From an uncultured Acidobacteriota bacterium (GTDB taxonomy: Bacteria > Acidobacteriota > Thermoanaerobaculia > Multivoradales > JAHEKO01): a stretch of 64,000 nt of DNA. Of the stretch, positions 1 through 19,952 are shown piece by piece. The DNA lies in contig CAVQNG010000003.1 of NCBI GenBank assembly GCA_963713825.1, positions 1 to 64,000 of the forward strand, given 5' to 3'. The position numbers and the translations under genes were made by a program. A model generated the notes under the pieces. The model was given only the letters and a program-made list of their open reading frames with translations, had not been told where the DNA came from and searched no databases. Within the stretch, counting starts at the first letter, position 1, and each line of letters opens with the position of its first letter.

Positions 1-1671
1 GTCCAGGAATGTCCCAACTCAAATTCCCCGGCCTCAGTGCCGTCCAGGACGCCGTATAGCTTGATCCGGCCGTCAGACCAGATCTCTATCTTGTCACACA
101 GGGCGCGGATGATCTTCTGGCGTGTTTTCAGTATGGCGTTTCGGTCGTCTTGAGACATGGCTTTCAATTCGTCGAGTGTCTGGTCGATATCCGGCAACTC
201 GGCCTGGAGCGCGGTCAGGAACTGCGTCGCGTAGTCCAACCCGGACTGCACCTTGACTGCATTATCTCTCAATTCCGTCAGCCTGTCAAGCTCCTCGCGC
301 CAGTGCTTTCGAGCCTCCTCGGTTTCGTCCATCCGGGCGTCAAACTCCGCTTCAGAGATCTTGCCTCTTGCCGCCTGCCGCTGGAAGAAGGCCCGTTCCT
401 GGTCAACCTCAGCAAGTTTCAGGCGGACGTGGGCGATTTCGCCACTCACGCTCTCTCCTTCTGCTCTGAGGGCCTCGATGTGGCCCGCGACCTGGGCCCG
501 GATCAGGTCGGGTTGCTTGATTCCATTGTCTACGATGTAGCGCCACACAACCCAGTCCAACGTCTTCCCATCCCAAGAGAAGGGGAGGGGATGCTCTTCC
601 TCGGGGAACATATTGGCGTTCACGCATTGATATCGATGCCTCGGGATCTGGCGTAGGGTTCGATTGTAGGTTCCGTCTGCCACCCGGTGGTACGAAAAGT
701 TCTGTGCATTGGTGGAGGTCAGCCGCCCACACTCGGCGCAGTGCAGGAGGCCCTGCAAGAGATACACGCCTCTGGCGTTTCGAGTCGAGAGCCGCTGGTT
801 GCGCTTCAGTTTGGCCTGCACACGCTGCCATTGCTCGAGGGTGATGATCTGTGGGATTTCTATGGTGTACTCCTCGCCATCGGCAAATCGCCACGAGAGG
901 CTGCCGGTGTATTCCTTGGAGTTCAGGATACCATAGATGCTTGCCGGGTTCCAATCGTGTAGCCGCTCCACTTCTCTCTTTTGGCCTGCCTCCCGCGCCA
1001 AGAGTCTGTTTCGCAGCCGAATCACCGAGACGCCGCTGTCGTACCAGTCAAAGACATGTTTGACGATCTGGACCTCTTGCTCATCGGCAAGCACGATTCT
1101 GCGCCCGCGCTTGCCTGGCTCGCGCACACATTCGTATCCCAATCGAATATAGTGCCCTGGCCATCGACCCTGTTGCAGAGTCGCGATCTTGCCCATTCTG
1201 GAGCGCTCCACGCGACGTTTGTTTTCCTCGCGCCAGATGGTCGCTTTGATGCTCAAGAGTGAACCGATCAATCTCGCCGCCTGTCGCGTCGAACACCTTG
1301 ATCTTGCCTTTGCCGTTTCGCCGAGCATCGCCGGCGTCGAGGGCATCTTCCAAGGCCACAGCAACGCGGGGGTGCCGCACCAAGCGGTCGTCACGCCAAC
1401 ACAGTGCGGCGTCAACCTCCCCAGTCCTCAACCGTTCAAGCATGGCCAGCAGGCCGGGTCGGTCTGCCCGTTCTCCAGAAGGATTGACGATCTTGCCTTT
1501 GTTCGGTGCTTGGGTCGCTCGATAGTTCTCGCAGTCCACAAACGTTTCCAAGACGTTCCAGTCCATACGCTCACAAAGCGCCTGCATGCCGGAAAGCTGC
1601 TGATCGATGCTGGCGCTCTCGTCCTTTGCTTGTTCTTCACTGCTCACTCTCGCGCTCAATACGACATTCAT
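1..1671 (-). CDS. Large serine recombinase (resolvase + recombinase + zinc-ribbon domains); one apparent frameshift near 1255; 3' end runs off the window
   Basis: N-terminus MNVVLSARVSSEEQ...SIDQQL, SGERADRPGL, WRDDRLVR. After a 1-nt shift near 1255 the frame stays open to nt 1 and reads SIKATIWREENKRRVER...LGY...LLQGLLHCAECG...YQC plus a coiled coil, which is typical large serine recombinase architecture. Confidence 0.88.
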
Positions 1672-2024
1672 ACTGCTATCTTCCCTTTGTGTGACGCTGA
1701 GATCTATGCTATGATCCAGCTTGGGCCGGGTGCTGCTGCTGTGGTAGGCTTGACGCCCGGCCCGCCGGTGGGTCAGTGGGTATCCGACAAATCGTCGGCT
1801 GCCGCTGGCCCGCTTCTCTATTCGCCGCTGGCGACGTGCGGCGTTCCGCTGGGCTGCGCGCCAGCCACTCGACCTGGACCACGGCCAACCCCGCTGTCTT
1901 TTCCAGAAAAGCCAAGAGCAGCTCACCGGCCTTGGTCTCGAATAACAGCCACCGTAGAAACATCGTTTCTCACCTCCTTCCCTTTGCTTTGTCTTGTACT
2001 CACTGCAGATGGTCCGCATCCACA

Positions 2025-2319
2025 TCACAGCCCCAGACCGTCGAGATTGGCTGCCACGTCCGCCGGTTCATCGTCAGATTCGGGGACTACCCCCATGCTT
2101 CCGGCCTGCACCAAACGAGGATCCGCTCCCCAGCTTGCGTTCGAGGTCCTTGACCGCCTGGTAAACATCCCCCAGAGTCACGCCCCCACTTCCGAGGTGA
2201 GCGTGAAGGGCATCCCGGATCGCTTTCGATTTCTCTCCCCTGGGCAGTCCTTCCAGATAGCGCAGGATACGCTTGTCCTTCTGGCTGTCCAGAGCGAAAG
2301 ACATCACGACTCTTGCCAT
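2025..2319 (-). CDS. ParR-like / ribbon-helix-helix partition adaptor (probable frameshift near 2115)
   Basis: Small gene directly downstream of the ParM-like gene. MARVVMSFALDSQKDKRILRYLEGLPRGEKSKAIRDAL fits a beta-strand-helix-helix fold. An alternate frame gives a plausible acidic tail VPESDDEPADVAANLDGLGL* ending at 2025. Confidence 0.55.
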
Positions 2320-2358
2320 CGTCTCCCCCTTGTAGTACCCGGTCATAACTACTGGGTA

Positions 2359-3335
2359 CTACCCGAGCCGCTGGGCAAAGCGCCAGTAGCCCAGAGCATT
2401 GGCGAAAACGGGATTGTCTACCACCCGCACATGGGGGAAGGCCCGAGTCAGGTACGGCCCCAGCAATAGGGCGCCACCGCCAGCCACGAGGATCGCCTCC
2501 AGCCCGGCCGCGCCGTTCCACAGTTGTGTGGCTTGGGCGATTACCTGGTCGCCCATCGGCTCCAGCATCGCGTCGATCACGTTCCCAGGTCCACCAGAGC
2601 CCCGAAGTACTTGACGCGGCGCTTGACGATGGCGTCGATCACCTGGTGGTCCCGCAGCTCCAGGTCAGGGCAGTGATTGGTCAGGTATTCGCGTACTGCC
2701 CGGGCCACGTCCCAGGCCCCCAGGTTTATGCTAGCCGTCTCCCGGCCGATCTCTGCCAGGCGATTGACACTCAGCAGGTTCGTGGTCTTGCCGCCAACGT
2801 CGATGACGCCCACTGCCCCGGTAGCCAGGTCGTGGTTCACGATCTTCCCATGGTCGTTTAGCGCCTCGGCTAGCAGTGTCCCGAACGGCTGGGGGATCAC
2901 CCGGCACTCACTCACTTGGAACGTTTGTGCGCGCCGCCCTTCCCTAGCCACTCTGTGGTGGCCGAGGAACCGGTCGCGCAGGGCGTCCTTGTCGGCAGAG
3001 TAGAAGGCCACCGGCAGCCCAGTCACCACCACCAAGTCACACCAGGTGGCCGCGGTAAGCTCGGTGAAACCGGCCAACATCAACCGGCGATACGCATTGC
3101 TGGCGATCCAGCCCCGATCCTCCCGCCGGTCCACGAATCGGCTCTGGGCGACGGCCCCCTCGCCGATGAGCCAGCTCCCATCGCCAGGCAGATCCAGGAT
3201 GATGTGCCCGTCTGCACTGCTGACGGCGAAACGCGCCCGGTCTGGCGTGCCCACCACGGAGGGAAAGGTCACCAGGCGGTCAGGACCAGCCACCGCCTTC
3301 ACAGAACTGTATCCAATGTCGATTCCTACGTTCAT
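2359..3335 (-). CDS. parM: ParM/StbA-family actin-like ATPase (frameshift near 2580)
   Basis: Phosphate-1 GIDIGYSSVK, VVTGLP, VIPQPFG, phosphate-2 IDVGGKTTN. The adenosine motif ILVAGGGA and FANALGY lie in the next frame (ORF 2359..2580). Confidence 0.85.
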
Positions 3336-3369
3336 CGTTCGCACTCCTTTCATCTGGTCTTGCTTGAGA

Positions 3370-3418
3370 AAACAAAAAACGGCCACCCGATCCCACTGAC
3401 AATGGATCGGGTGGCCGT
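3370..3418 (-). terminator. Intrinsic terminator / attenuator just upstream of parM
   Basis: 15-bp perfect inverted repeat ACGGCCACCCGATCC...GGATCGGGTGGCCGT (3379-3418) followed on the minus strand by a T-rich run. Confidence 0.75.
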
Positions 3419-3422
3419 CTAA

Positions 3423-3451
3423 TTGACGACATAACCAGGCTATGCTAGAAT
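3423..3451 (+). promoter_or_regulatory. Sigma70-type promoter (antisense orientation)
   Basis: TTGACG (3423-3428), 17-nt spacer, TAGAAT (3446-3451) with an extended -10 TG. No convincing plus-strand CDS follows. Confidence 0.65.
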
Positions 3452-3457
3452 AGCATC

Positions 3458-3550
3458 AGCCTGGCTCGCTGTCCTTCCTACGGGTGCGTCAGCGGGTTGG
3501 GTTAGGGCTGTGTTGGTGTTGGCGCACCAGCACGGCCCGTTTTCTTATTT
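3458..3550 (+). ncRNA. Putative ~90-nt antisense small RNA
   Basis: Bounded by the 3423-3451 promoter and a 14-bp stem (3505-3538) that pairs fully only as plus-strand RNA (two G-U pairs) and is followed by GTTTTCTTATTT. Confidence 0.5.
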
Positions 3551-3719
3551 CAGGACATCGGTCCTGTTTTTCAGGTTCCTCGGGCAGGTCTTCCTCTACC
3601 CAACGCTCCAGGTATTCCTTCACGACGGCAGTGATGGTCGTCCCTAGCAAAGCAGCTTTGGCTTTGACACGCCTGTGCAAGTCCTCCGGTAATCGTATGG
3701 TCGTCTTCCGATCTTCCAT
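3489..3719 (-). CDS. CopG/Arc/ParG-like ribbon-helix-helix regulator
   Basis: MEDRKTTIRLPEDLHRRVKAKAALLGTTITAVVKEYLERW is a classic RHH pattern. The C-terminal tail may be a frameshift extension. Confidence 0.75.
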   Translation of the reverse strand: MEDRKTTIRLPEDLHRRVKAKAALLGTTITAVVKEYLERWVEEDLPEEPEKQDRCPEIRKRAVLVRQHQHSPNPTR

Positions 3720-3768
3720 CCCTGCCTTCTTTATGTCTGCCTAGTTTCCTGGTTTGCTATCTTGCCAT

Positions 3769-3798
3769 ATTATACACCCTATTTGCGCCCGTTGTCAA
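3769..3798 (-). promoter_or_regulatory. Consensus sigma70 promoter for the RHH gene
   Basis: Minus strand TTGACA, 18 nt, TATAAT, about 50 nt upstream of the RHH start. Confidence 0.7.
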
Positions 3799-3923
3799 GT
3801 CTGACTCGGACTGTGCTGGTGACAGGCTATGCGGTTGTAAAAGTGCCAATGGTGGACGAGATCCCCGAATCGCTCGTAGGGCTATTTGTTTCCGGCGATC
3901 TGTGCTTCACCCCTCGACCACAC

Positions 3924-4778
3924 CTACCGGAGTCTCTGTTCTTCTTCAGGAAACTCGCGTTCGTAGTTCAGTAGAGTCCGGCCGGTGATGTTGTAGTTGG
4001 AATGCGCCCAGCGATCCTTGTTCTCGATCAGGCCACTGTCCCGAACGGCCCGATAGTGTTGCACGATCTCGCGGCGTTTGCGAGGCGAGTAGGCGTAGCG
4101 ATCACTCTCTGCCGCTGCATCATCCCGTCCGGGTTCTGTCCTGGATGTTTCCGGGCCTGATTCCCTTTGCTGCTCATCGGGGATCAGTTCGACTTGCACT
4201 CTTGAGTCGTGGTGAAGCTCTGGGTCCTGGTGAGCACGGCCGGGGTGATGACCATTCCTTGCCAGCCGCAGCATCTCGACCAACTCCTGCGGCGGGCAAT
4301 AGCTCAGCGCCTTGTTGGTCGCCTGGGAGAATACATCCAGGGCCAGACGCTTCTCGACCGGTCCTTGGGTGGCAACCGCCGGCGCGGAGCCTCGAATGAA
4401 GGACGCCAGGGTGTCCGGGGGCCAGTAGCGAAGCGCGAACTGGGCGGCGGACAGATACCAGTTTGCAGCCTGGATCGCATGCCGTGAGGGAGGCTGCCAG
4501 TCTGGTCTGGTGAGCCTTCGAACTGCCCCCAAGCGCTTGACTCCCAGCCCAGGGAGGGCTAGCAGCGCCCAATCCGAGACCCCATCCACCTGTTGGAGGG
4601 TGGTGTACCCTGCCTGGACCAGCTTGCGCAGAGCGATCGCCGTGGAGTGGTCATTGCCGGCGGCCAGGGTCTGGGCCAGTTCGTACAGTAGGTTTTCGCC
4701 ATGGGTACGGGCGCGCATCAGCTTGCTTTCCCTCTCCAAACAGAACACGGCCCAATGCACCTCTGATGAGGCATTCAC
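3924..4778 (-). CDS. Hypothetical protein with N-terminal RNAP alpha-CTD/HhH-like segment and possible C-terminal HTH
   Basis: ALRKLVQAGYTTLQQVDGVSDWALLALPGLGVKRL resembles the alpha-CTD/HhH pattern. The C-terminus YSPRKRREIVQHY...YNITGRTLLNY is HTH-like. Start codon uncertain. Confidence 0.5.
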   Translation of the reverse strand: MNASSEVHWAVFCLERESKLMRARTHGENLLYELAQTLAAGNDHSTAIALRKLVQAGYTTLQQVDGVSDWALLALPGLGVKRLGAVRRLTRPDWQPPSRHAIQAANWYLSAAQFALRYWPPDTLASFIRGSAPAVATQGPVEKRLALDVFSQATNKALSYCPPQELVEMLRLARNGHHPGRAHQDPELHHDSRVQVELIPDEQQRESGPETSRTEPGRDDAAAESDRYAYSPRKRREIVQHYRAVRDSGLIENKDRWAHSNYNITGRTLLNYEREFPEEEQRLR

Positions 4779-4847
4779 TGAGCCGTGTCTTGTCCCGTTG
4801 GGTGACGTGACTTGGCCTATTCGCTTGTCGCAGAGCCGGTGGTCAAG

Positions 4848-5216
4848 CTACAGCCAGTATTCCCGGTCCTTGAATCCGACGCCGGTGCCGTGGAGGAGCC
4901 GGATGGCGCGCTCGCCATGGCGCCGTTCCAGGTCCACGATCTGTATCAACGCGGGGATACCGTCCTGTAGTTCAATACAGCCTGCCCGAGAGAATTCGAC
5001 GACAAACCTGCCACTCACTCCTGGTAGGGCATGGGCCACACTGTCGGGTAGCATGTCCAGCAGATAGCGCCGGCGCCCTTTCCGGGTTTCCAGCCTTTGC
5101 CGAGCCATGGCGATGGCCGGCTCCAAACTGGGAACAACCGCAAGACCATCGGCAACCAGTTGCCCGATGACTTCCTGAGCGCGAAAGAGCGCTTTCAGAT
5201 CCTGTGTCCTAATCAC
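4848..5216 (-). CDS. Hypothetical protein
   Basis: 122-aa ORF immediately downstream of a clear leftward promoter; no recognisable motif. Confidence 0.5.
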   Translation of the reverse strand: MIRTQDLKALFRAQEVIGQLVADGLAVVPSLEPAIAMARQRLETRKGRRRYLLDMLPDSVAHALPGVSGRFVVEFSRAGCIELQDGIPALIQIVDLERRHGERAIRLLHGTGVGFKDREYWL

Positions 5217-5282
5217 CGTTTCAACCTGCCTTCGCGAGCTGCAATTCCTGCTTACTGTGCTTTCAGCGTCATCTCCTGAGCC

Positions 5283-5311
5283 AGTATACAGGGTGGAAGG
5301 CAGCCTGTCAA
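5283..5311 (-). promoter_or_regulatory. Leftward sigma70 promoter
   Basis: Minus strand TTGACA (5306-5311), 17 nt, TATACT (5283-5288). Confidence 0.7.
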
Positions 5312-5424
5312 TCGTGTGTTCCTACGATCTTGATCTCGTATGTTCTTGCGCGCGGTATCGTACCTTTCCACCGAAAGATCGTAGGAACTACGTATGCCGC
5401 TCGCGCAAGAACTACGTATGCCGC
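5312..5424. repeat. Array of direct and inverted repeats between divergent -35 elements; probable regulator binding sites
   Basis: 16-bp direct repeat GAACTACGTATGCCGC at 5385 and 5409. 14-bp inverted repeat GTTCCTACGATCTT (5318) / AAGATCGTAGGAAC (5375). 11-bp inverted repeat at 5342 / 5402. TCG-initial units at 5312, 5336, 5358, 5379, 5401. Confidence 0.7.
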
Positions 5425-5426
5425 GC

Positions 5427-5455
5427 TTGACCTGGTGCGGGATTTCTGATATGAT
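5427..5455 (+). promoter_or_regulatory. Rightward sigma70 promoter of the signalling cassette
   Basis: TTGACC (5427-5432), 17 nt, TATGAT (5450-5455) with extended -10 TG, 35 nt upstream of the regulator ATG. Confidence 0.65.
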
Positions 5456-5489
5456 AGCGCGCATATGCAACCGGCCGAGGTGGTATTTC

Positions 5490-6113
5490 ATGCTCACTGT
5501 AGCCGTGATTGATGATCACCCAGCGACCCGACTGGGGATCATCGCAGCCCTGAACAAAGTCCCTGATATCGAAGTCGTTGGAGAAGCAGGTTCCGGGCCT
5601 GAACTGGCAGCGCTGCTGAAGGGAAGCGTGCCGGATGTGTTGCTCCTGGACATCAATATGCCCGAGTTCAATGTCTTCGAGGCTGTTCCCCGGATGCAGA
5701 AGCAGTATCCCCAGATGCGGATTATCATCGTGACCATTCAGGAGGACGAGAAGCACGTCTGTGGCCTCGTGGAACTTGGGGTGGATGGCTACCTCATCAA
5801 AGAGGAGCCCATGACCGAGTACGTCAAAGCGATCCGCGCTGTTTCTGCGGGCGGGACGTACTTTAGCCAGCGCGTGGTCCCTATCATGTGGGGCCTGAAT
5901 TCTAATGAAAGTACCCCCAGCCTCACCCCTCGTGAACTGGAGGTGATGGAGCTGATGGCCACAGGCGCAAAAGCAGATGCAATTGCGGAGGAGCTGTTCA
6001 TCACTCCACGAACAGTGACAACCCATGCATCGAACATCTACCGGAAGCTGGGGGCAACCAACCGCGCCGCAGCCGTGCGCCAGGCTATCAAGTTCGGTCT
6101 CATATCTGTATAG
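5490..6113 (+). CDS. NarL/LuxR-family response regulator (ComA-like)
   Basis: VAVIDDHP, DVLLLDINMP (phospho-Asp), GYLIK, and LuxR HTH LTPRELEV...TVTTHASNIYRKLG. Confidence 0.95.
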   Translation: MLTVAVIDDHPATRLGIIAALNKVPDIEVVGEAGSGPELAALLKGSVPDVLLLDINMPEFNVFEAVPRMQKQYPQMRIIIVTIQEDEKHVCGLVELGVDGYLIKEEPMTEYVKAIRAVSAGGTYFSQRVVPIMWGLNSNESTPSLTPRELEVMELMATGAKADAIAEELFITPRTVTTHASNIYRKLGATNRAAAVRQAIKFGLISV

Positions 6114-6130
6114 AGAAGGCTACAAATGGA

Positions 6131-6994
6131 TTGTTGCGCAGGGGAAAGACAGTGAGAACACCGGGCAAGTCACCGTCAAGAGCCAAATACTTCTGGCGTG
6201 CTGCTGGCTACTTTGTGGCCCTGGCTGTCATCAATCTGGTTGCTCATGGCGAACTCGGGTACCTCCTTTCCGAATACCTGCCATCCTGGCTAGCGACTGC
6301 CCTTGAGAGCGTCGTCTATCTGGTAGGCGTCCTGGCTCTGACCTGGGCCTTCTGTCGCTTTGTGGATCACAGTTCGCTCACTGATCTGGGTTTGCAGAAA
6401 CGAGGCTGGCTCGCCAAGCTGGCTGCGGGTTGGGGGCTGGGAGCGCTCCTGATGCTCGTCGTATTCGGCATCCTGGTAGCGGGTGGCTGGCTCACGATCG
6501 AAAGCTCTGCCTGGCAACCATTGGATTTGGCCGCTGCGATCCTGGTCGCCGTTGTGGTCGGCTTCAACGAGGAGCTCGCGTTCCGCGGATACATCATGCA
6601 ACGCCTGGGCCAGGCTTGGGGGATGCCGCTCGCTGTAGCTGGGTCATCCATTCTCTTTGGCCTGGTGCACGTACTCAATCCCAACGCCACTGCTCTGGGC
6701 ATTCTGAGCGTTTGTCTCTCCGGAGTGCTGTATGCTTGTGCATATCTTGTCACCCGCTCTCTGTGGTTGCCCATGGGGCTGCACATGAGTTGGAACATCG
6801 TGCAGATGCACGTCCTGGGATTTCCGGGCTCAGGACACGTCAGACCATCAATCATGCGCTCGGTCACCCAGGGGCCAGATCTGGTGACAGGTGGCGCTTT
6901 CGGTCCCGAAGGGGGGATCGTGGTCATCGGGGTTTCGTTGGCAGCGATCGCCCTTTTGCTCCTTCGATATCGGACAACCCTTACCAAAGACTAA
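6131..6994 (+). CDS. CPBP/Abi (type II CAAX prenyl protease-like) intramembrane glutamic endopeptidase
   Basis: Motifs EELAFRGY, LFGLVH, GLHMSWN and FGPEGG; multiple TM helices. Start may be the GTG at 6152. Confidence 0.92.
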   Translation: MLRRGKTVRTPGKSPSRAKYFWRAAGYFVALAVINLVAHGELGYLLSEYLPSWLATALESVVYLVGVLALTWAFCRFVDHSSLTDLGLQKRGWLAKLAAGWGLGALLMLVVFGILVAGGWLTIESSAWQPLDLAAAILVAVVVGFNEELAFRGYIMQRLGQAWGMPLAVAGSSILFGLVHVLNPNATALGILSVCLSGVLYACAYLVTRSLWLPMGLHMSWNIVQMHVLGFPGSGHVRPSIMRSVTQGPDLVTGGAFGPEGGIVVIGVSLAAIALLLLRYRTTLTKD

Positions 6995-7015
6995 ATCATA
7001 GGAGGCAGAAAAAGT

Positions 7016-7255
7016 ATGAAAGACACAGGATTGTTGCAAATCACACATCGGCTTGTCACGGACGAAGAGTACAGAACGTGGTTTATGACCTCCCCCAAAC
7101 AGGCCTTGATAACCGAATTGGGGATTTCTCCGAGCGCCTACGACTCCCTTGTCGCTGCGCTTCCGCTCTTGCTCGCCGGTGGGTTGTTTGTCGTGGGGGG
7201 AGGAGAAGGGCCTGAGCCGCTTTCCACCGACAACGACTGGGGCAGGCGGGGCTGA
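7016..7255 (+). CDS. Putative ComX-like / RiPP precursor peptide (79 aa, Trp75)
   Basis: Strong RBS (AGGAGG near 7000). Helical leader RLVTDEEYRTWFMTSPKQALITELGIS, hydrophobic Gly-rich segment, C-terminal STDNDWGRRG. Adjacent to the prenyltransferase gene. Confidence 0.72.
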   Translation: MKDTGLLQITHRLVTDEEYRTWFMTSPKQALITELGISPSAYDSLVAALPLLLAGGLFVVGGGEGPEPLSTDNDWGRRG

Positions 7256-7310
7256 GTACTGTCTCGTGCTAGAATCGCACGGGCTAGCTCGCCTTCGTCG
7301 TACTTTGTCA

Positions 7311-7340
7311 GCCCTGCGTTGGAAAACGCAGGGCGTTTTT
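7311..7340 (+). terminator. Stem-loop / intrinsic terminator after the precursor gene
   Basis: GCCCTGCGTT-GGAA-AACGCAGGGC followed by GTTTTT. Confidence 0.7.
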
Positions 7341-7350
7341 GATACGGATC

Positions 7351-8295
7351 ATGTTGTCTATCTCTGAGCAAGTGGAGATCGTCCACGAGATCATTGGCGA
7401 AAACCTGGCGTTCTGCAGGGCTGCTCTCTTCCCCGACTTTGCAGGGCTACTGGCAACAGTGCTGAATGACAGAGCGCCTTCACCCGACAGGCCTCCCTGG
7501 TTGATGTTGCCGATTCTGACCTGCGAAGCACTTGAGGGAGACTCCGAGCGAGCCTATCACGTAGCTGCTGCCCTCGAGATAGGGCGGATTGCCGCCGGTT
7601 GCCTGGATGAATGGCAGGACCAGGACACCGATGATGCCCTATGGCGGACCGTAGGCCCAGCGCAGACGGTCAATTTGGCTACAGCCATGATTGGGCTCTC
7701 GCAGCTATCCCTCACCCGCCTCGCCGATCTTGGCATGGACCCAGCGGTCATCCTGAACCTGCAGAAGGAATTCTCGTTGACCTTGCTCTACATGTGCGAA
7801 GGACAACACGCTGATTTGAGCGATGATGGTTCCCTCAGCGACTACGAAGAGACAGTTGGAGCCAAAACCGGCTCGCTGCTGAGCCTCGGCTGTCGAGCAG
7901 GCGCTATGGTTGCCGGGGCAGATGCAGAGACTGTCGCATGCTACGGCGATTTTGGGTACAGCCTGGGCATTCTGGCCCAGGTGTGGAACGATTTCTACGG
8001 TCTGGCAGGCACCGGGGGAAAAAGAGACGTTGGTCATAGTCGCACTTTGCCCATCCTGGCTGCATTGGCTCTGGATGGAGTGCACTATCAACCCGACTCT
8101 GCTGAGGGCCAGGCAGGGCAACTGTATGCTCTGGCCCAGTTCCAGGCTTTGCATCAACGTGCTGCTGAGGCATTAGCCAGGTGCCCGGCTCCCGGACACC
8201 TGGCCAGGTTTCTGGATGTGTATTCGATCAATCATCTGCTCCAGGGGGAATCATCGCAGGTTCGTTCATCCGGCGAGGGCGATGATGCTAAGTAG
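7351..8295 (+). CDS. Polyprenyl-synthetase-fold enzyme, ComQ-like peptide (Trp) prenyltransferase
   Basis: AAALE, first acidic motif LDEWQD without the downstream RRG, GQHADL, KTGSL, second motif QVWNDFYG (ND rather than DD), RTLPIL. Confidence 0.8.
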   Translation: MLSISEQVEIVHEIIGENLAFCRAALFPDFAGLLATVLNDRAPSPDRPPWLMLPILTCEALEGDSERAYHVAAALEIGRIAAGCLDEWQDQDTDDALWRTVGPAQTVNLATAMIGLSQLSLTRLADLGMDPAVILNLQKEFSLTLLYMCEGQHADLSDDGSLSDYEETVGAKTGSLLSLGCRAGAMVAGADAETVACYGDFGYSLGILAQVWNDFYGLAGTGGKRDVGHSRTLPILAALALDGVHYQPDSAEGQAGQLYALAQFQALHQRAAEALARCPAPGHLARFLDVYSINHLLQGESSQVRSSGEGDDAK

Positions 8296-10684
8296 ACTGT
8301 TCAGCGCAGAGGGAGTCAGGCGCCTGTCGATGCAGGCCCTGCTGTTGCTGGGACTGGCCATTCTTGTCAGCGGCCTGGCAATGTTCTTCTATGACATATC
8401 GCTGCCGTACGCCGGCTTTGAGGTCGCCGGTGCCACAGGTGTTGGGGCCATCCATCCCGGGGGTCCGGCTGCATCTGCCGGACTTGGTATGGATGACCGG
8501 ATCCTGGACATCCAGGGAGAAGGATCGCCGGGAGACGCGTACCTGCATCCCGACCAGGAGGCCCTCCAACTGACCGTGTTGCGTGATGGGCAGGAAGTGT
8601 CCCTGAACATCGGCTTGACCTCACCACCGCCCAAGGTGACTTTCAACAAGGTTGGCTACTATGTCATGGCCCTGGCCTTCTGGATCATTGCCATGATCGC
8701 CCTGGTGTTCAAGCCCCGCGATCCAGTGTCGCAGCTCTTTGTCTTGGTCGCTCTGCTCGGCACATTGGGCATCGTCGTCTGGCGCATGGCGGACATTGGT
8801 GCATTCTGGGCGAATTTGACGATGCCTGCTATCGCCCTGGCCGTTGGTCCAATTTTCGTCCACTATCACACGGTCTTTCCTGAACGCATCAGCTTCAGGG
8901 GCAAAAGGGCTCTGTTGGTAGGTTTATACTGTATCAGCCTGATTCTGCTGTTGCTATCCACGGCGTCGGATCTGATCTATCTCGACAGGCAACTCCACAA
9001 TCTCGGCGGAGGGCCGCCGTCCCTTGCTGCGGTGATCAAGGTGTACTTCTGTGCTTGTTTGATCATCGGCCTGACGCTGCTGGTACGGACCTATCGCGAA
9101 TCAAGCTCCGAGACAGGCAGGCGACAGGTCGCGCTGATTATGCTCGGCACTGGTTTGGCATCGTTGCCGCTCATGCTCTTCATCATGCTGCCCCAGATTC
9201 TCCACACTCCCTACGTCGTGCCGAGCTGGATAAGCCTTTTGTTGTTGATGCTCATCCCGCTCAGCTATCTCTACGCCATGTACCGGCACAACCTGATGAA
9301 GCTGGACCGGATCGTCAATCGCTCGGTCGTGTATTTTCTCCTGTCCTTGAGTTTCATTGCCATGTACCTTGCTTTCTCTCTGGTTACCCGGTGGTTGATG
9401 CCCGATGTCTTTTCGGGGCCTGCTACTCTGGTAAACGTCGTACCCGTCCTGGTTCTCGTGTTCCTGCTCGAGCCCCTGAAGCAAAAGATCCAGGCACTCG
9501 TCGACGGCGTTTTCTATGGCGGTTGGTACGAACACAATGAGTTTGTCCATGGTGTGAGTAGTGCGCTCAAAGATGCGCTGGATAGCCAGACCGTCGCCGA
9601 TCTGTTGGTGAATGACGTGGCAGACACCATGCGTTTCAAGGAAGTCGCATTACTACTGCCGGAGGTGGGAGGTGACGAGGACACGTTTTGCGTACGAGAA
9701 CGCAATGGCTTCGATGCAATCATGCCTGTTCGCCGCGGGAGCGCTCTGGCTGCTTCCCTTTTAGAAGTCGGAGAGCCGATTCAACATGGAGTATTGCGTG
9801 ACCGATTGCGAGTTGATCCAGCCGCCCAGGAGGAGCTTGCTGTCTGGTCTGAGGTCGGGGTGCAGATGTGGGTCCCTCTGGTGCAGCGGGACAGGCTGAT
9901 GGGGATCCTGGTGCTGGGGAGCAAGGTCGCTGACGAGTTCTTTGCCAAGCAGGATCACCATGCTCTGGGTACCCTGGCTCACCAGGCTGCCGTCTCCCTT
10001 GCCCGTGCCCAGCTCGTTGACCGGCTTCAGGGCCAGATCCACGAGATCCAGGCCCTGACCAAACAGGTCATCGCCCTGCAGGAGAGAAACCAGAAGCGGT
10101 TGTCCCAGGAGCTCCACGACGACGTCGCCCAGGACCTGGCCTTCGTTCTCCGATTGCTGGAAGAACCGGTGGAGACTCACTCCCCCAGGAAGATCATCGG
10201 CGCACGCGACGTGATCCAGCAAGCCCTCGATCGTTTGCGCGACCTGATGTTTGAGCTACGCCCTCCGAACCTGGGCGACGACCTGGAAAAGGCGCTGAAG
10301 GAGTACGTCGCCTCTTTCCGGAGAAGACGGAATCTGCCCGTCGTCCTCCACACCAATGGCAACGGGGTATCGGTGCCGAAAGAGGTCAGGATCGCTCTGT
10401 TTCGCATTTGCCAGGAGAGTCTGAACAACACCTTGATGCACGCCGAGGCAAGGCAAGTTGACGTCACGCTGGACCTGCAAGACCGTAGGGTTCGCCTGGT
10501 GGTCAAAGACGACGGCGTGGGCTTTGAGGTGCCAGCCCACCTGGGCTCCCTCATCGACCAGCAGCATCTGGGCCTGGTCGGCATGCGGGAGCGGGCGGAG
10601 GGCGTCGGCGGTACTTTCAATCTGGAGTCGGAGCCCGGTCAGGGCACGCGGATCTCCGTCGACGTGCCCTTGTGCCTATCCTGA
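8282..10684 (+). CDS. ComP-like membrane sensor histidine kinase (PDZ-like + multi-TM + GAF + HisKA_3 + HATPase)
   Basis: PDZ-like GGPAASAGLGMDDRIL, about 9-10 TM segments, GAF-like VPLVQRDRLMGILVLG, H-box ELHDDVAQ, N-box QESLNN, DDGVGF, GLVGMRER. Overlaps the prenyltransferase stop by 14 nt. Confidence 0.93.
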   Translation: MMLSRLFSAEGVRRLSMQALLLLGLAILVSGLAMFFYDISLPYAGFEVAGATGVGAIHPGGPAASAGLGMDDRILDIQGEGSPGDAYLHPDQEALQLTVLRDGQEVSLNIGLTSPPPKVTFNKVGYYVMALAFWIIAMIALVFKPRDPVSQLFVLVALLGTLGIVVWRMADIGAFWANLTMPAIALAVGPIFVHYHTVFPERISFRGKRALLVGLYCISLILLLLSTASDLIYLDRQLHNLGGGPPSLAAVIKVYFCACLIIGLTLLVRTYRESSSETGRRQVALIMLGTGLASLPLMLFIMLPQILHTPYVVPSWISLLLLMLIPLSYLYAMYRHNLMKLDRIVNRSVVYFLLSLSFIAMYLAFSLVTRWLMPDVFSGPATLVNVVPVLVLVFLLEPLKQKIQALVDGVFYGGWYEHNEFVHGVSSALKDALDSQTVADLLVNDVADTMRFKEVALLLPEVGGDEDTFCVRERNGFDAIMPVRRGSALAASLLEVGEPIQHGVLRDRLRVDPAAQEELAVWSEVGVQMWVPLVQRDRLMGILVLGSKVADEFFAKQDHHALGTLAHQAAVSLARAQLVDRLQGQIHEIQALTKQVIALQERNQKRLSQELHDDVAQDLAFVLRLLEEPVETHSPRKIIGARDVIQQALDRLRDLMFELRPPNLGDDLEKALKEYVASFRRRRNLPVVLHTNGNGVSVPKEVRIALFRICQESLNNTLMHAEARQVDVTLDLQDRRVRLVVKDDGVGFEVPAHLGSLIDQQHLGLVGMRERAEGVGGTFNLESEPGQGTRISVDVPLCLS

Positions 10685-10701
10685 ATCCAAGGAAGGGTGC
10701 T

Positions 10702-11768
10702 ATGCGCATCGCCATTGTCGGAGCGGGTCCGGCCGGCTGCCACCTGGCCCATTGCCTTGCCAACACCGAGCACGAAATCCTGCTCTTTGACCATCGCGCA
10801 CGCCCGCCCCACGAGGCGGGTTACGAGAAACCGTGCGGCGGGGGCCTGGGTCCCCTCATCGGCCGGCACCTCCCCGACGTGATGGCCCTGCCGTTTTCGC
10901 GCCACTGCCCAACCCGCCTGCTGCTCCGGGCCTCGGACGGCAGCCAGGTCGAGCAGATCCTTGACCAACCTCCCTGGGCCATCGTCTCCAGGGAAGACCT
11001 TGGCCGGGCGTTGCTCGACCGCGCCCTGGCCAACGGCACGTTCGCCTCGTGCGCCAGCGGGTGGTTGACCTGGAGCAGACCGGGGACGGCTGGTGCCTGC
11101 GTACCGCAGTCGGGCCAGGTGTTCTCAGCCGACTTTTTGGTGGGTGCCGATGGTGTGCGGAGCATCGTCCGGCGGCGCGTGGTGGGGCCGATCCCCCGGC
11201 AGCACCTGGGCCTGGCCGTAGGCTACCTGGTGCGGGGCATGCCAGACGCCCTCATATTCCAGACCTTTGCCGATCTGGAGGGTTACCTCTGGTCCTTTCC
11301 CCGCCCTGACCACGCCAGCGTGGGCATCGGCAGCCGGCTGGGTGCCGTTCCTCCTCGGGACCTTTGGCAGCGGTTGGATCGGTTTCTCGACGACACGTGT
11401 CCAGGGGCCAGCAGGGATAGGCGCTGGGCTGCGCTTGCTGCCGATGGCTCGGGGATCCGACGCTGTGGGATACACCCTGCGCAGGGCCGGGATGGGCCTT
11501 GCTGGGGGACGCGGCGGGCCACGTCCATCCCATCACCGGCGAGGGCATCGCCTACGCTCTGTGGTCGGCGGAGCTGCTGGCCGAGGCATTCGGGCAGGGA
11601 GATCCACAGGTCTACGAAGGCCTGTGGCGGGAACGGTATGGGCGCGGGTTCATGGCTGCCAGCGGCATGTTGCGCCCGGTGGATCTGGACATCGGTGCCT
11701 ACGAGATCGTATTTCAGGTGGCGATGGCCGTGTTTCAGCTGACAATGGCGATGGCCCTGTCAAGCTAA
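10702..11768 (+). pseudogene. Geranylgeranyl-reductase-family FAD oxidoreductase with about 4 apparent frameshifts (errors or pseudogene)
   Basis: IVGAGPAG, EKPCGGG, LVGADG..S, GYLWSFP, LGDAAGHVHPITGEGIAYA. Frame switches near 11040, 11108, 11434 and 11452. Confidence 0.8.
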
Positions 11769-11943
11769 GACAAGATCCACGAGCTTGTCCAGTGTCCTTT
11801 GCGGCCGTGATTCTTCTTGGAGCGCCGTTCAAGCTCACTCACCTCTTGACCCTGATCCCATTCTCTCCCACCATAGCCAAGCGCAGTCTGCTTGGTCTTG
11901 TGCCGAGCACGACGGTCGAGGTACCTGCTACCAATGCAGGGAT

Positions 11944-11972
11944 TTGACGTTTGCCCCGAAATGGTGTAGTAT
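11944..11972 (+). promoter_or_regulatory. Sigma70 promoter of the HTH/BREX-like operon
   Basis: TTGACG, 17 nt, TAGTAT. Confidence 0.65.
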
Positions 11973-12017
11973 TCAAAACTGTTGAGCTACCCCGCATTTG
12001 GCAAACTGGAGCTCTCG

Positions 12018-12227
12018 ATGAACGATGAGATTCTAGAAAACTACCTCGGAATGGATGAGGTGGCTCGCTGTCTCTCCATTCATGTGGAGAGCGCCCGCCG
12101 CCTGGCCCGTCAGGGAAAGATCCCGGCTGTGCGTGTGGGAAACAAATGGCTTGTGCGTGTAGACGTCTTGAAGGAGTTTTCACGGCAATACGACCCTCGG
12201 CGTGGGCGCCGGGCACTCGAAAGCTGA
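12018..12227 (+). CDS. Excisionase-family (HTH_17, MerR-like) DNA-binding protein
   Basis: YLGMDEVARCLSIHVESARRLARQGKIPAVRVGNKWLV. Confidence 0.85.
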   Translation: MNDEILENYLGMDEVARCLSIHVESARRLARQGKIPAVRVGNKWLVRVDVLKEFSRQYDPRRGRRALES

Positions 12228-12233
12228 GCCCTT

Positions 12234-13004
12234 GTGGAGAAAACCATGACAATGCAGAACTCGAAGGGTATGGATCCACCGCGCATGATTCAGGAAGTAC
12301 CCTGGCTGCAAGCGAAGCTAGCAATCAGGGAAAGCCTTCGCTTTGACGACTTCTCTGCGTTTCGGGCCTTTCTGCAAGAGAACCTGCCATACAACTCTCC
12401 GTCTACCAGACGGCAGCACGCACAGACCATAGCACTGTACTTTTTTCCGGGCCAGTCACTGGACGTGTTGCCTCGGCGAGCTTGGGAAGCATATCGGGAT
12501 GATGACTTGCTGGAAGAGCTGATGCGCCATCAGTACCTGGCTCAGGAGCCAACCGTGGCTCACTTCGTCGCCAGCTACCTGAGCACAATGGCCCCGGGTG
12601 TCATTCTTGAGCGCTCAGTGTTGGAAACATACATCGAAGAAGTGGATCCGAAGAACCGCCCGAAAATGGTCCGTCGTCTTGGGGAAACGCTCCGCCGTCT
12701 GGGGTTCGTTGTTCGACAGCGCCAAAGAGACATTGTAGCACAGCTCAAGCCTGGCAAGACGCCTTTCTTGCTCCTGGTGCATCGCCTCTTTGCGCCTTCT
12801 CCGCGCATCGTCACCTTGCGCGACATCTTGGCCCATCGGTTCTGGCTGTATCTCGGCCTGCGTGAAGAAGGAGAGGTTCGCCGCATTCTGCACGAGGCCA
12901 GTGCCCAGAGCTTGATCGCCGGCTATGCTAGAGTGGATCAGCTTGAGCAGATCACAACGAGTTACACACTCGACCAGTGGCTTGAGAAGAGGCTGCGGCT
13001 GTGA
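12234..13004 (+). CDS. Hypothetical protein, possibly BrxA-like
   Basis: 256 aa; NLPYNSPSTRRQ and helical composition reminiscent of BrxA/DUF1819; first of three coupled genes before a P-loop ATPase. Confidence 0.45.
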   Translation: MEKTMTMQNSKGMDPPRMIQEVPWLQAKLAIRESLRFDDFSAFRAFLQENLPYNSPSTRRQHAQTIALYFFPGQSLDVLPRRAWEAYRDDDLLEELMRHQYLAQEPTVAHFVASYLSTMAPGVILERSVLETYIEEVDPKNRPKMVRRLGETLRRLGFVVRQRQRDIVAQLKPGKTPFLLLVHRLFAPSPRIVTLRDILAHRFWLYLGLREEGEVRRILHEASAQSLIAGYARVDQLEQITTSYTLDQWLEKRLRL

Positions 13005-13492
13005 GACGTGACCAATTCGCTGCCGAGATTGACTCGATTCTGGCGGGCTCCCACCCCTATCGCCACCTCTACGTCTGGCTCGGCGAGATCGATGATCTGA
13101 CCTCGCTCCTAGCTTCTCGCTGTGCTCAGCGCCTGGATGCTTTTCAGCTAGCTGCCGAGCTGAGCCACTTTCCCTCCGCAGTAGACGAAGCGGGCGACCT
13201 GCTACGCGATGCTCTGCGAGCGAGACTGAGGGTTTGGCATGCCACCAATGGGGATGCCCATCCAGTTCTCGTGATCACTGGCTGCGAGCTGTTGGCGCGG
13301 TATCGAGTGGGACTGCAACCATTCTATGAGGCGTTGACCGCTCGCTCGATTGTCATACTGGTCTGTTCGGCAGAGGATGCTGCCTACGATCCAGCCGATC
13401 GGCTGCCCAACTATGTACGTTGCGAGCCTCGGTCCACATTTGCTCATTTGGGGCGACTTGTTGAGGAAAATCACGTTATAGTAGAGAGCTAG
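13001..13492 (+). CDS. Hypothetical protein, possibly BrxB/BrxF-like degenerate P-loop protein
   Basis: GTGA overlap with the upstream gene; PVLVITGCELLARY strand-helix motif; size and position match BrxB/BrxF. Confidence 0.4.
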   Translation: MRRDQFAAEIDSILAGSHPYRHLYVWLGEIDDLTSLLASRCAQRLDAFQLAAELSHFPSAVDEAGDLLRDALRARLRVWHATNGDAHPVLVITGCELLARYRVGLQPFYEALTARSIVILVCSAEDAAYDPADRLPNYVRCEPRSTFAHLGRLVEENHVIVES

Positions 13493-13507
13493 ACAAGGAT
13501 TGCGCAT

Positions 13508-14558
13508 ATGCCCCGCGAGAAACTTCAACACTTGGTCATTCCCAAGCCGATGCCAGAAGACGTAACGCTGTCCCTGAGGCGTTCCTTCGACAATCCGCTG
13601 CAGACAGTGGACGACTACTGGTTCACTGACACCATCCGGGAGTACTTTGAGCGCATTGTCGAACTGGCAGTCCAAGGTAGAGGTCAAGGGTACTGGGTTG
13701 AGGCCGAGTATGGTGCCGGCAAGACTCACTTTCTTGCAACACTCGCCTGCCTGTTGGCCAATGCCGCCGACGATGCTCTGTGGGACCTGGTCAAGGATGA
13801 TGCCATCAGGAACTACCGGCGCCGTCTTGCGTCCCAGCGGCTGTTCCCGGTAATACTATCGCTCAAGGGGCAGAGCGGCGCTGACGAGTGGAGCGGCCGC
13901 CAGCTACTGAGCGTCCTGGAACAGGAGGGCTTTGGTGAGACACTGAAACGGATCGGCCTTAGCGGCCAGATCCAGGTCACCTCCACCGACGAACTCCTAG
14001 CATGGTTTGAGGAGCGGGATGCTGGGCTGCGGGCTGCCATAGAGCGGTATGTTGAATCTGAAACCGGTTGCACCCCTGCTGACTACCTTGCTCGCTACGG
14101 CCGGCGCGCGTTCGGCCGAGGCCCTACGTGACTATTGTGATGCCAACGATTTTCAGCCCCGCACGTCTGCGAGCGTACGAGAGCGCCTCGTTAACCTTTT
14201 CGACCAACTGACCTTGCCGGCTTTGGTCGCCAAGGGGGTTGAACCCTACACTGGCTTGCTTGTTGTCATTGACGAGTGGGAATCCTGGGATCGCCTGCAC
14301 CCGGCAGGCTCATCAGAAGCTGCCCATGACGAGGAGGTTCTGGAAACCCTTTCCTTCGTCCTGGCCAAAAATCTGGGCCTGCCAGTCCTAACTCTGGTCG
14401 GCTCCCAGACCGCGGTGCCAGCCAGGCTCCGCGGCGGCCAGGAAGGCGATCGATTCATAAACATGCCGTTGTTGAAGGGGGCCGGCGAGCGCGAGTACGA
14501 TATCATCGTCTCTCATCGCGTGCGCAAACTGGACCCTGAACGGACACCGGAGATCAAT
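13508..14558 (+). CDS. P-loop ATPase (BrxC/PglY-like), frameshift near 14110, truncated at the junction
   Basis: Walker A AEYGAGKTHFL and Walker B LLVVIDEW in the next frame. Sequence degenerates after DPERTPEIN. Confidence 0.65.
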
Positions 14559-18562: not shown

Positions 18563-18719
18563 CACCGCAGCTCGAGATAACACGGAAGAGTGGCTTTCGA
18601 GCCTGACAGGCCGTGCTGTGAGTCGCTGTGTCGCAATCCACAGGGCAAGAGTCGGGCCTGGCTTTGTATATACTCCTGGCCTCGAAGGACCTCCCGATAA
18701 CCCTCGGAAAGGGACATCT

Positions 18720-19952
18720 GTGGCAGTAGCCAGGCAACGCATTCACCTTCCGCCCAAAGGCTGGCGCCGAGCCATGACCGGTTTGGTCCAGGGAACCCTC
18801 TGGGACGGCGACGAAATCCGTCAATTCGAGAGGGCTTTTGCCGATTTCATCGGCGTTCCCGACGCGGTGGCAATCCCTTCGGGGCGGGGCGGCCTGCGAT
18901 TCATCTTCGAGGCCCTTGGCCTCCAGCCGGAGGCAGATGTCATCTGCTCGGCCTTCGCCTATCCGGTGGTTCCACACTTGGCCCGTTCCCTGGGCTTTTC
19001 CGTTCGCTTCGCTGACTGCGAGATGGAGACCCTGGGGATGGATCCAGAGGCGCTCGCGGCCACCATCACGGGTGACTCGAAGGTGGTGATTGCGACTCAC
19101 CTCTACGGTATACCCTGCCGAATTCGAGAAATCGCCGCGATCGCCGAAGCCCACGGCGCCACCCTGATCGAGGACTGTGCCCATTGCTACGGTGCCTCGG
19201 CAGGAGGTCGCAAGGCAGGGGCTTTCGGCCGTTTCGGATACTTCAGCTTCGAGACCTCCAAGCCAATCAACACCATGGGCGGTGGCATGGTCACGACCCA
19301 GGACCCGGAGCTCGCCGAGCGGATTCGTGAAGTGGCTCGGAAGGAGCCCGCAAAGAACCTCGCATGGTTGCGAAAGCGCCTGTTCAAGACCACCTTCGAA
19401 ACGACCGTCACCAACCCGTTGGTCTTCGATCTAGGGGTCTATCCGGCGCTGCGATTCCTGCAGAGCCGTGAGGACTCCGACGAGCGCTACGCATCCGGTT
19501 ATCAGCCGGACGAGATCACGATGCAGGGACGCATGGGGCGATACACGAACTACCAAGCTTCCCTCGGACTGGAGCAGATGCAGATCATTCTGCCGCAGCT
19601 CGAGCGGCGCGTTGCCAACGCCGAGCGCCTGATCGATCAGCTGAAGGACTCCGTGAAATTCCAGTGCCACGATGTCGACGACGTGCGCTCCAACTACATG
19701 CTGGTGACAGCATTGTTTCCCCAAATGCACGCTATGGCTCGACGACTTCTCGAGTTGGGCGTCGACACGAAGCATCACTACATGAGGGACTGCAGCGCGC
19801 TTCTCGATGGCGGTGGCTCTTTCCCCAGGGCAGCGCAGGCAGAGCGCGAGATCTTGCATTTGCCGGCCTACCCGGAGATCAGCGACTCCAAGATCGATTG
19901 GATCGCTGAGAGAGTGCGGCAAGCAGTCGACGAGCTCGGCGCCAGCAAGTAG
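18720..19952 (+). CDS. DegT/DnrJ/EryC1/StrS-family PLP aminotransferase
   Basis: FERAFA, THLYG, IEDCAH, FSFETSKPINTMGGG (PLP Lys), LHLP. GTG start after GAAAGGGA. Confidence 0.92.
   Translation: MAVARQRIHLPPKGWRRAMTGLVQGTLWDGDEIRQFERAFADFIGVPDAVAIPSGRGGLRFIFEALGLQPEADVICSAFAYPVVPHLARSLGFSVRFADCEMETLGMDPEALAATITGDSKVVIATHLYGIPCRIREIAAIAEAHGATLIEDCAHCYGASAGGRKAGAFGRFGYFSFETSKPINTMGGGMVTTQDPELAERIREVARKEPAKNLAWLRKRLFKTTFETTVTNPLVFDLGVYPALRFLQSREDSDERYASGYQPDEITMQGRMGRYTNYQASLGLEQMQIILPQLERRVANAERLIDQLKDSVKFQCHDVDDVRSNYMLVTALFPQMHAMARRLLELGVDTKHHYMRDCSALLDGGGSFPRAAQAEREILHLPAYPEISDSKIDWIAERVRQAVDELGASK

Follow-up and report, generated by a model that had tools for sequence, protein, structure and literature searches.

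In Bacillus subtilis, the ComQXPA system brings together a prenyltransferase, a Trp-ended precursor with a variable core, a multispanning PDZ kinase of the HisKA_3 type and a NarL-type response regulator, as laid out in the available text of earlier studies (PMC4008528, PMC9620489). It is not settled by what route ComX-type prenyl-Trp pheromones are processed and leave the cell: the protease that processes B. subtilis ComX lies outside the locus, and the accessible part of the PalQ paper refers to "unknown proteases" (PMC10853753). The same text describes a cluster of Paenibacillus alvei, PalX/PalQ/PalP, composed of a precursor with an NHLP leader and a terminal Trp, a Trp prenyltransferase of the IPPS fold and a kinase; PalX's NHLP domain increases prenylation, and PalX is cut by cell lysate, with no protease listed in the three-gene cluster. 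Trp-prenylation chemistry is also displayed by StheX and StheQ of Sphaerobacter thermophilus, a member of the Chloroflexota, and residues 1 to 59 of StheX are predicted to be ordered (available text of bioRxiv 10.64898/2026.08.29.745113). In the agr system of Staphylococcus aureus, MroQ, a membrane protease of the CPBP family, removes the leader of AgrD, a precursor with an N-terminal helix (available text of bioRxiv 10.1101/2021.12.29.473670 and PMC10885120); the AIP thiolactone of this system is made by AgrB, sensed by AgrC/AgrA and not prenylated.

The locus described here lies near the start of a 64,000-nucleotide stretch of DNA, hereafter the window, and consists of six genes on the forward strand in the order response regulator, CPBP protease, precursor, prenyltransferase, PDZ kinase and geranylgeranyl-reductase-family enzyme. 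We favor, with fair confidence, the interpretation that the precursor and its cassette constitute a ComX-type quorum-sensing system of Anaerolineae, with pherotype-like cores and a leader removed by the CPBP protein; the order of the genes, the pattern of conservation, the motifs and the selection on the coding sequence, on which this interpretation draws, were observed directly.

What the cassette shares with the pal cluster, as described in its available text, is a histidine kinase, a prenyltransferase of the IPPS fold and a precursor of NHLP type whose C-terminal Trp is conserved. The hybrid of an NHLP-type leader and a Trp core that the original prediction had put forward is supported, but as a combination it is already known from PalX/PalQ/PalP (PMC10853753). 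Whereas Trp is the last residue of PalX, it is internal in the window precursor, which belongs to a family with tails of 0 to 5 residues and carries a hydrophobic AGG segment; moreover, the pal cluster as described lacks a protease, a response regulator and a flavin enzyme, all three of which are found in the window cassette. With StheX/StheQ, the cassette shares the phylum, the FARM (DExxD), the Lys, the pseudo-SARM Gln/Asn/Asp and a near-terminal Trp in a short precursor. However, stheX lies downstream of stheQ while the window precursor lies upstream of its enzyme, StheQ D219 is replaced by Gly, and an NHLP domain, a leader and a histidine kinase go unmentioned in the available StheX/StheQ text. 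PalX/PalQ and StheX were compared from their published descriptions. In common with ComQXPA, the locus encodes an IPPS-fold enzyme with a pseudo-SARM (NDxxx), an adjacent precursor with Trp at position 75 of 79 and a kinase and a regulator on the same strand. It departs from ComQXPA in gene order (A-CPBP-X-Q-P-GGR versus Q-X-P-A) and in its precursor, which is 71 to 84 residues long among family members, carries a leader with NHLP-clan matches and has no match to the ComX model (PF05952; 52 to 73 residues).

The available text of a comQXPA census (PMC4008528) mentions neither Chloroflexi nor a peptidase, and that of a later survey (PMC8895600) notes Chloroflexi only for an HK-RR pair. In searches of mainly open literature, we found no Trp-prenylation cassette with a CPBP protein, a geranylgeranyl reductase or a hydrophobic segment, nor one in Anaerolineae. 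What is new here is a membrane protease of its own in the cassette, together with the flavin enzyme, a cut site that can be predicted and an apparent location on a mobile element.

Relatives of the cassette and origin of the DNA

A metagenome scan yielded 47 loci, with 28 strong near full-family matches, and 20 of the 401 Anaerolineae-class genomes sampled matched at E<=1e-35; the named homologues carry Anaerolineae labels. The order regulator-CPBP-precursor-prenyltransferase-kinase is repeated in the metagenome loci and in the Anaerolineae-class genomes. The precursor lies directly upstream of the prenyltransferase in 21 other distinct intact loci, counted after omission of a duplicate (L017, the same as L018), two near-duplicates (L032 and L034), a frameshifted locus (L026), a rearranged contig (L022) and loci without upstream sequence. 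A CPBP gene precedes the precursor in 20 of these 21, L025 beginning at the last residues of the CPBP gene. L058 encodes a prenyltransferase of the clade with no precursor or CPBP gene within 1.5 kb upstream or found in its genome, and L054 a truncated prenyltransferase after a transposase-like ORF.

Searching prenyltransferases phylum-wide returned mostly housekeeping IPPS. Distant cassettes retain an NHLP-like precursor with Trp, the prenyltransferase and the kinase. When the window CPBP protein and FAD enzyme were used as queries against L077 to L100, matches were obtained only in L077, L078 and L079, and in a Pfam scan of 53 selected neighboring ORFs, a set without the L077 copies, L079 alone had Rce1-like and GGR domains.

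Some of these relatives have peculiarities of their own. L087 (8849-9184, minus strand) and L091 (7090-7539, plus strand) encode multi-core precursors, with an NHLP leader and 3 or 5 GPxGPWxWQF repeats, next to a ComQ-like enzyme and a kinase. Two different NHLP/Trp precursors occur in one cassette in L096 (6759-7022 and 7624-7869), with an additional partial prenyltransferase-like ORF between them. Other tailoring-type genes, for a Trp-halogenase-like FAD enzyme and radical SAM proteins, are found near the distant cassettes L031 (1386-3158), L033 (806-2416), L090 (729-2267) and L095 (8366-9847). In L079 (6491-13563, genome G483), an MFS transporter gene, possibly for an exporter, comes right after the canonical geranylgeranyl-reductase-family gene.

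Positions 1 to 14557 of the window, including the cassette, very likely stem from an Anaerolineae organism and were joined to the host contig during assembly. The junction (14556..14558) interrupts two genes mid-way, brxC to its left and arnT to its right. Same-genus genomes align to the window only from position 14556 on, and the sequence lying upstream of this point in them is found at the very beginning of host contig C25, the probable true left neighbor of the arnT region; a loose end at 14558 with this same upstream sequence recurs in three runs from two studies. By composition, the contig's first 14 kb stand out as outliers (ranks 15 and 17 of 758), the piece contains one-base indels not seen in other runs, and the cassette was not found in 400 genomes of the host class. 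The host has LpxC, which is lacking in four Anaerolineae-class genomes, and its RecA is 93% identical to that of a same-genus genome and 57 to 59% identical to those of Anaerolineae-class genomes; it is very probably an LPS-making bacterium unrelated to the piece. Genuine horizontal transfer into the host appears unlikely. With a contig start that is very likely chimeric, neither the piece nor other findings in positions 1 to 14557 ought to be assigned to the host genome, and the frameshifts in the FAD gene are probably errors. On the host side of the junction, an 860-residue repeat-rich protein (16160-18742, minus strand) has no NCBIfam match and ends in what we take to be a FADGFE-type motif, and positions 45000 to 51000 have a lower GC content (0.55 to 0.57) and are a tetranucleotide outlier (rank 28 of 758).

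The precursor and the hairpin that follows it

Every peptide stretch quoted in the original prediction falls in a single ORF of 79 residues (7016-7255, plus strand), preceded by an AGGAGG ribosome-binding site (7000-7005) located 10 nt before the ATG. This ORF is a real, conserved gene under purifying selection, since dN/dS lies between 0.04 and 0.11 (over codons 2 to 56, 0.106 against L003, 0.056 against L004 and 0.035 against L011) and 82 homologues are found, 81 of which carry a Trp within the last 6 residues. Among the differences listed, 12 of the 14 inside the ORF are synonymous.

Residues 1 to 56 (7016..7183) form a predicted helical leader of the NHLP clan, whose end is the hydrophobic, double-Gly LVAALPLLLAGG, and residues 57 to 79 (7184..7255) comprise a hypervariable segment followed by NDWG, in which Trp75 (7238-7240) is expected to receive the prenyl group. 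Among 27 close sequences, identity to the window precursor is 0.86 over residues 1 to 44 and 0.87 over residues 45 to 56, drops to 0.38 over residues 57 to 63 and 0.31 over residues 64 to 72, and rises to 0.92 at NDWG; [AT]GG stands at the leader end in 52 of 61 precursors. The sharp fall right after LLAGG and the recovery at NDWG suggest that the hydrophobic segment straddles a double-Gly leader/core boundary, so that it likely consists of two parts, a conserved double-Gly leader end and the hydrophobic start of the variable core. In the 82 homologues, the last 12 residues occur in 70 distinct versions, the Trp sits within DWG in 45, GWR in 22 and GWG in 7, and 0 to 5 residues follow the last Trp; this tail is Gly/Arg-rich, variable in length and at times missing. 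Two leader alleles (with 1 and 23 differences) were found in run X1, both stopping at 7187, and contigs of single runs carry several leader alleles that end at 7180 to 7187, which is consistent with coexisting core variants. One close allele, P0150, is frameshifted in its 3' part, reads through the stop and lacks the DWG end, owing either to an error or to a null allele.

Of 22 family members, 21 are matched by the NHLP-clan model NF038399 (best E, 8.5e-8) and 11 by the Pfam model Frankia_peptide of the same clan; the window precursor itself stays under the NHLP-clan cut-offs (NF038399, 21 bits versus 40), and the more distant L080 precursor exceeds that of NF038399 (43 bits). None of the 22 matched the Pfam model of Nif11, or that of ComX (PF05952) at E<=0.1. 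AlphaFold models the leader as helical with pLDDT above 90, placing helices at residues 4-15, 17-25, 27-35 and 39-60 and leaving the tail disordered. With this model, Foldseek returned nothing at E<=0.001, and the Atlas matches for the precursor, all under 0.9, are leads only.

The gene and the enzyme gene behind it are separated by a conserved GC-rich stem-loop with a T run (7311..7340, plus strand). The hairpin itself (7311-7334) has 10 pairs, 7 of them G-C, and a loop of 4, is followed by T residues at 7336-7340 and lies 16 nt before the prenyltransferase ATG at 7351. When the bases of the 95-nt spacer were shuffled 2000 times, a 10-bp stem arose twice, so that chance is an unlikely source of the stem. 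The stem GCCCTGC...GCAGGGC, or a close variant, recurs in 17 of 23 spacers, mostly 10 to 30 nt before the enzyme start, with a variable loop and a T run that is variable and in several spacers weak or absent. In 11 aligned copies, picked for carrying the motif, 98% of the cells are paired; covariation is weak, with two pairs changed on both sides, both in one sequence. A REP element was considered and rejected, as five genomes contain only 0 to 4 pattern sites each. The hairpin is likely a leaky terminator or a stabilizing or processing stem, and together with the weak ribosome-binding site of the enzyme gene it would quite plausibly hold enzyme levels below those of the precursor.

The features originally described for this stretch are confirmed and their interpretation is partly borne out by these comparisons, which support the strong ribosome-binding site, the hairpin and T run before the prenyltransferase gene, and the conserved leader, conserved Trp and variable core among small ORFs beside homologous prenyltransferases. 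The NHLP/Nif11-like leader is supported in its NHLP part but not for Nif11, and the ComX-like DWG core holds for the Trp but neither for an invariant DWG nor for a ComX model match. The flavin enzyme, the promoter boxes, the mobile element and the chimeric junction had escaped the original prediction.

The hydrophobic segment and probable removal of the leader

Directly upstream of the precursor, the window encodes a CPBP/Rce1-like intramembrane glutamic protease (6131..6994, plus strand; PF02517, E 3.5e-21, 75.7 bits against a cut-off of 22.4). Its EExxxR, FxxxH and HxxxN motifs are intact, and these catalytic motifs are invariant or nearly so in 14 sequences. By analogy with MroQ and AgrD, this protein is probably the leader peptidase of the precursor and would cut at or just after AGG, giving a variable core of about 16 to 24 residues that may be trimmed further; the window protein is related to MroQ only at the family level (NF046050, E 3e-4, far below the cut-off).

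The original prediction regarded the hydrophobic segment as a membrane anchor for intramembrane cleavage. The best 19-residue Kyte-Doolittle mean is at least 1.6 in all 22 precursors of the window clade and in 81 of the 82 homologues, and such a precursor is found in 2 of 17 cassettes without an adjacent CPBP gene, 5 of these 17 having short flanks. The co-occurrence counts are not independent, since in the enzyme tree the CPBP protein and the FAD enzyme represent a single gain (with support of 0.83 for L079 as the sister of the clade) and the hydrophobic segment is assigned to one later clade; the tree, built with FastTree, is poorly resolved at its base and contains one doubtful outgroup row, L116. 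The sister cassette L079 is a natural control, in which a CPBP protein accompanies a non-hydrophobic, amphipathic precursor (0.23), and conversely L080 and L081 have hydrophobic precursors with no adjacent CPBP gene. Among genomes with a CPBP-less cassette, a possible CPBP orthologue is matched elsewhere in G542 (E 9e-56) and G673 (E 4e-34), and none in 3 others. The segment includes a helix-breaking Pro and the AGG, in favor of an anchor cut by the CPBP protein. A positive-inside test on flanking charges did not favor an N-in/C-out topology (15 versus 27 of 61). In the AlphaFold model, residues 39 to 60 are one helix that prolongs the leader fold and may simply dock on the enzyme. A complex prediction for the CPBP protein and the precursor (score 0.03, mark 0.32) was counted neither for nor against. 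The anchor idea thus retains the conserved segment and the intact CPBP gene upstream, but L079, L080 and L081, the flanking charges and the confinement of the link to one clade weigh against it; whether the helix ending in LLAGG would place the precursor at or in the membrane, as a true anchor, appears to us evenly balanced.

These data bear on an alternative that we consider unlikely, albeit the best of the alternatives. It retains quorum sensing but takes the helix as a leader docking helix or as a classical double-Gly end, the leader being cut by a host protease or transporter peptidase encoded elsewhere, while the CPBP protein would clip the 0 to 5 residues after the prenyl-Trp, much as Rce1 acts after farnesyl-Cys, or degrade excess signal. 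Double-Gly leaders are paired with C39 peptidases, yet no C39 peptidase was found in the three genomes with a full clade cassette (G449, G530 and G401, all incomplete MAGs), and the cassette itself contains neither a C39 peptidase nor a transporter. The tail, Gly/Arg-rich, variable and sometimes missing, is unlike a fixed CaaX, and the retention of hydrophobic character in nearly all homologues also speaks against mere docking. On the other hand, the conservation boundary falls exactly at AGG, L079 combines a CPBP protein with a non-hydrophobic precursor, the tails range in length down to zero, and PalX, from a three-gene cluster described without a protease, is cut by cell lysate (available text of PMC10853753). 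Cleavage by the CPBP protein is nevertheless the reading that we prefer.

Predicted prenylation and sensing, and the probable mobile element

The prenyltransferase gene (7351..8295, plus strand; PF00348), which has a weak ribosome-binding site, encodes a ComQ-like enzyme of the trans-IPPS fold with the FARM DEWQD and, replacing the second Asp-rich motif, a pseudo-SARM QxxNDxxG as in ComQ and StheQ. Residues D86, D90, D92, K172, Q210, N213, D214 and G217 are invariant in 58 homologues, and the first seven correspond to D85, D89, D91, K174, Q212, N215 and D216 of StheQ. Gly occupies the position of StheQ D219, whose mutation lost 83% of the activity according to the available text (bioRxiv 10.64898/2026.08.29.745113). 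The nearest PDB matches are polyprenyl synthases and Ord1. Judging from PalQ and StheQ and from the conserved motifs, the NHLP-clan leader would very likely dock the precursor on this enzyme for the transfer of a geranyl or farnesyl group to C3 of the Trp indole. The FAD enzyme of the geranylgeranyl-reductase superfamily (10702..11768, plus strand), frameshifted in this assembly and intact in relatives, follows the kinase in 8 of the 9 loci whose sequence extends that far, all but L018. Its best matches are TIGR02032 and the archaeal DGGR 3oz2; the intact L013 and L021 copies reach 134 and 133 bits, under the TIGR02032 cut-off of 158.8, with TIGR02032 still the best family, and the L079 enzyme exceeds it (212 bits). 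The structure model of the FAD enzyme is poor (pLDDT 46). Tentatively, we propose that this enzyme modifies the signal, the likeliest reaction being a reduction of double bonds in the prenyl group.

The kinase (8285..10684, plus strand) is ComP-like, with TM1, a PDZ domain, 8 more hydrophobic segments, and GAF, HisKA_3 and HATPase domains. This layout, nine hydrophobic segments with the PDZ domain following the first, agrees with that predicted for Bacillus ComP, modeled as TM1-PDZ-multi-TM with the PDZ domain between TM1 and TM2 (available text of PMC9620489). Compared with L016, its sensor region is 83 to 90% identical and its kinase core 92%, a sensor variability weaker than classic pherotype divergence. 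The NarL/LuxR-type response regulator (5490..6113, plus strand; PF00072 and PF00196) is predicted to have a ComA-like role.

Upstream of the regulator gene, four candidate regulator boxes are flanked by back-to-back promoters (boxes within 5318..5424). Two boxes are 21-nt direct repeats with a 24-bp spacing (5380-5400 and 5404-5424) and two are inverted copies (5318-5331 and 5342-5352). The predicted operon promoter, TTGACC-17-TATGAT (5427..5455, plus strand), comes directly after the repeats and has its pattern in 8 related loci; the divergent sigma-70-type promoter, TTGACA-17-TATACT (5283..5311, minus strand), recurs as a pattern in 6. The arms of the inverted repeats vary in concert in L022. 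The boxes vary in sequence from one subclade to another and are clear only in close relatives: L008 and L021 have other repeats, and L004, L006 and L077 yielded no clear tandem box. With 2 mismatches allowed, the 12-mer box by itself is not a rare sequence. From the divergent promoter side, a gene of unassigned function (3924..4718, minus strand; about 264 residues from its ATG), possibly for a regulator, has tblastn matches in 8 loci (43 to 82% identity), no Pfam match, weak alphaCTD/Mor-like leads and Atlas matches under 0.9; it is likely an output of the circuit. In its product, the N-terminal part resembles a helix-hairpin-helix and the C-terminal domain is conserved; the gene always diverges from the cassette.

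On the divergent side, genes for an RHH protein and a ParM-like protein occur in 5 and 4 loci, respectively, and the window, L077 and L078 encode a large serine recombinase. In the window, positions 1081-3719 (minus strand) and 11982-14557 (plus strand) together encode a frameshifted serine recombinase, a ParM-like actin, an RHH protein, an excisionase-like HTH protein and the start of a BREX system, colinear with G449. A BREX system follows the cassette in G449 as well, and that locus also contains three protein kinases, a PP2C and a TPR protein. Between the window and G449, protein identity is 81 to 87% in the flank but only 50 to 60% in the cassette, as would be expected if cassette alleles were exchanged on a shared element. 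The cassette likely resides on an integrative element, and we propose that it induces itself and controls genes of that element. In such a circuit, the PDZ kinase would sense the released peptide and phosphorylate the regulator, which would bind the repeats in front of the two promoters, so that positive feedback would set in and the element's divergent genes would be turned on; we lean slightly toward this step as a whole.

The setting is also relevant to a quite improbable alternative, in which the product is a membrane-retained lipopeptide (a contact signal, an element-exclusion tag or a bacteriocin), the CPBP protein an Abi-type immunity factor, and the kinase and regulator a feedback sensor. 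A long hydrophobic segment combined with prenylation, a cassette without a transporter and an integrative element with BREX cargo would suit such a product, and CPBP proteins act as bacteriocin immunity factors. However, a ComP-like kinase with an extracellular PDZ domain adjoins in nearly all cassettes, the short hypervariable segment by an invariant Trp suits signal specificity, and the strong ribosome-binding site, the hairpin and the tandem boxes suit autoinduction. Least probable by our estimate is that the IPPS-fold and GGR-family enzymes make a small isoprenoid (a reduced prenyl diphosphate or an Ord1-like prenyl-indole), with the small ORF as a regulatory or accessory membrane peptide, since, although the PDB matches fit and a prenyl synthase beside a prenyl reductase is a usual lipid pair, the second Asp-rich motif is replaced as in ComQ and StheQ and a Trp-ended NHLP peptide adjoins the enzyme across deep branches.

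Returning to ComX-type quorum sensing, a candidate protease in the operon and a cut site indicated by the alignment make the cleavage step testable by co-expression, and the linked flavin enzyme predicts a further, undescribed modification of the prenylated Trp. In a bolder version, to which we assign little likelihood, the pathway would be free of a transporter: the helix would carry the prenylated core across the membrane, the CPBP protein would release it at AGG, the GGR-family enzyme would saturate the isoprenoid, and the element would count its own allele group. If true, a ComX-type signal would for the first time carry a reduced prenyl-Trp, the kind of protease behind the maturation of prenyl-Trp pheromones would be identified, and an integrative element would time its own excision or spread. 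The cassette would bring full peptide quorum sensing, in many core versions and apparently on a mobile element, to the Anaerolineae, abundant and mostly uncultured bacteria of sediments.
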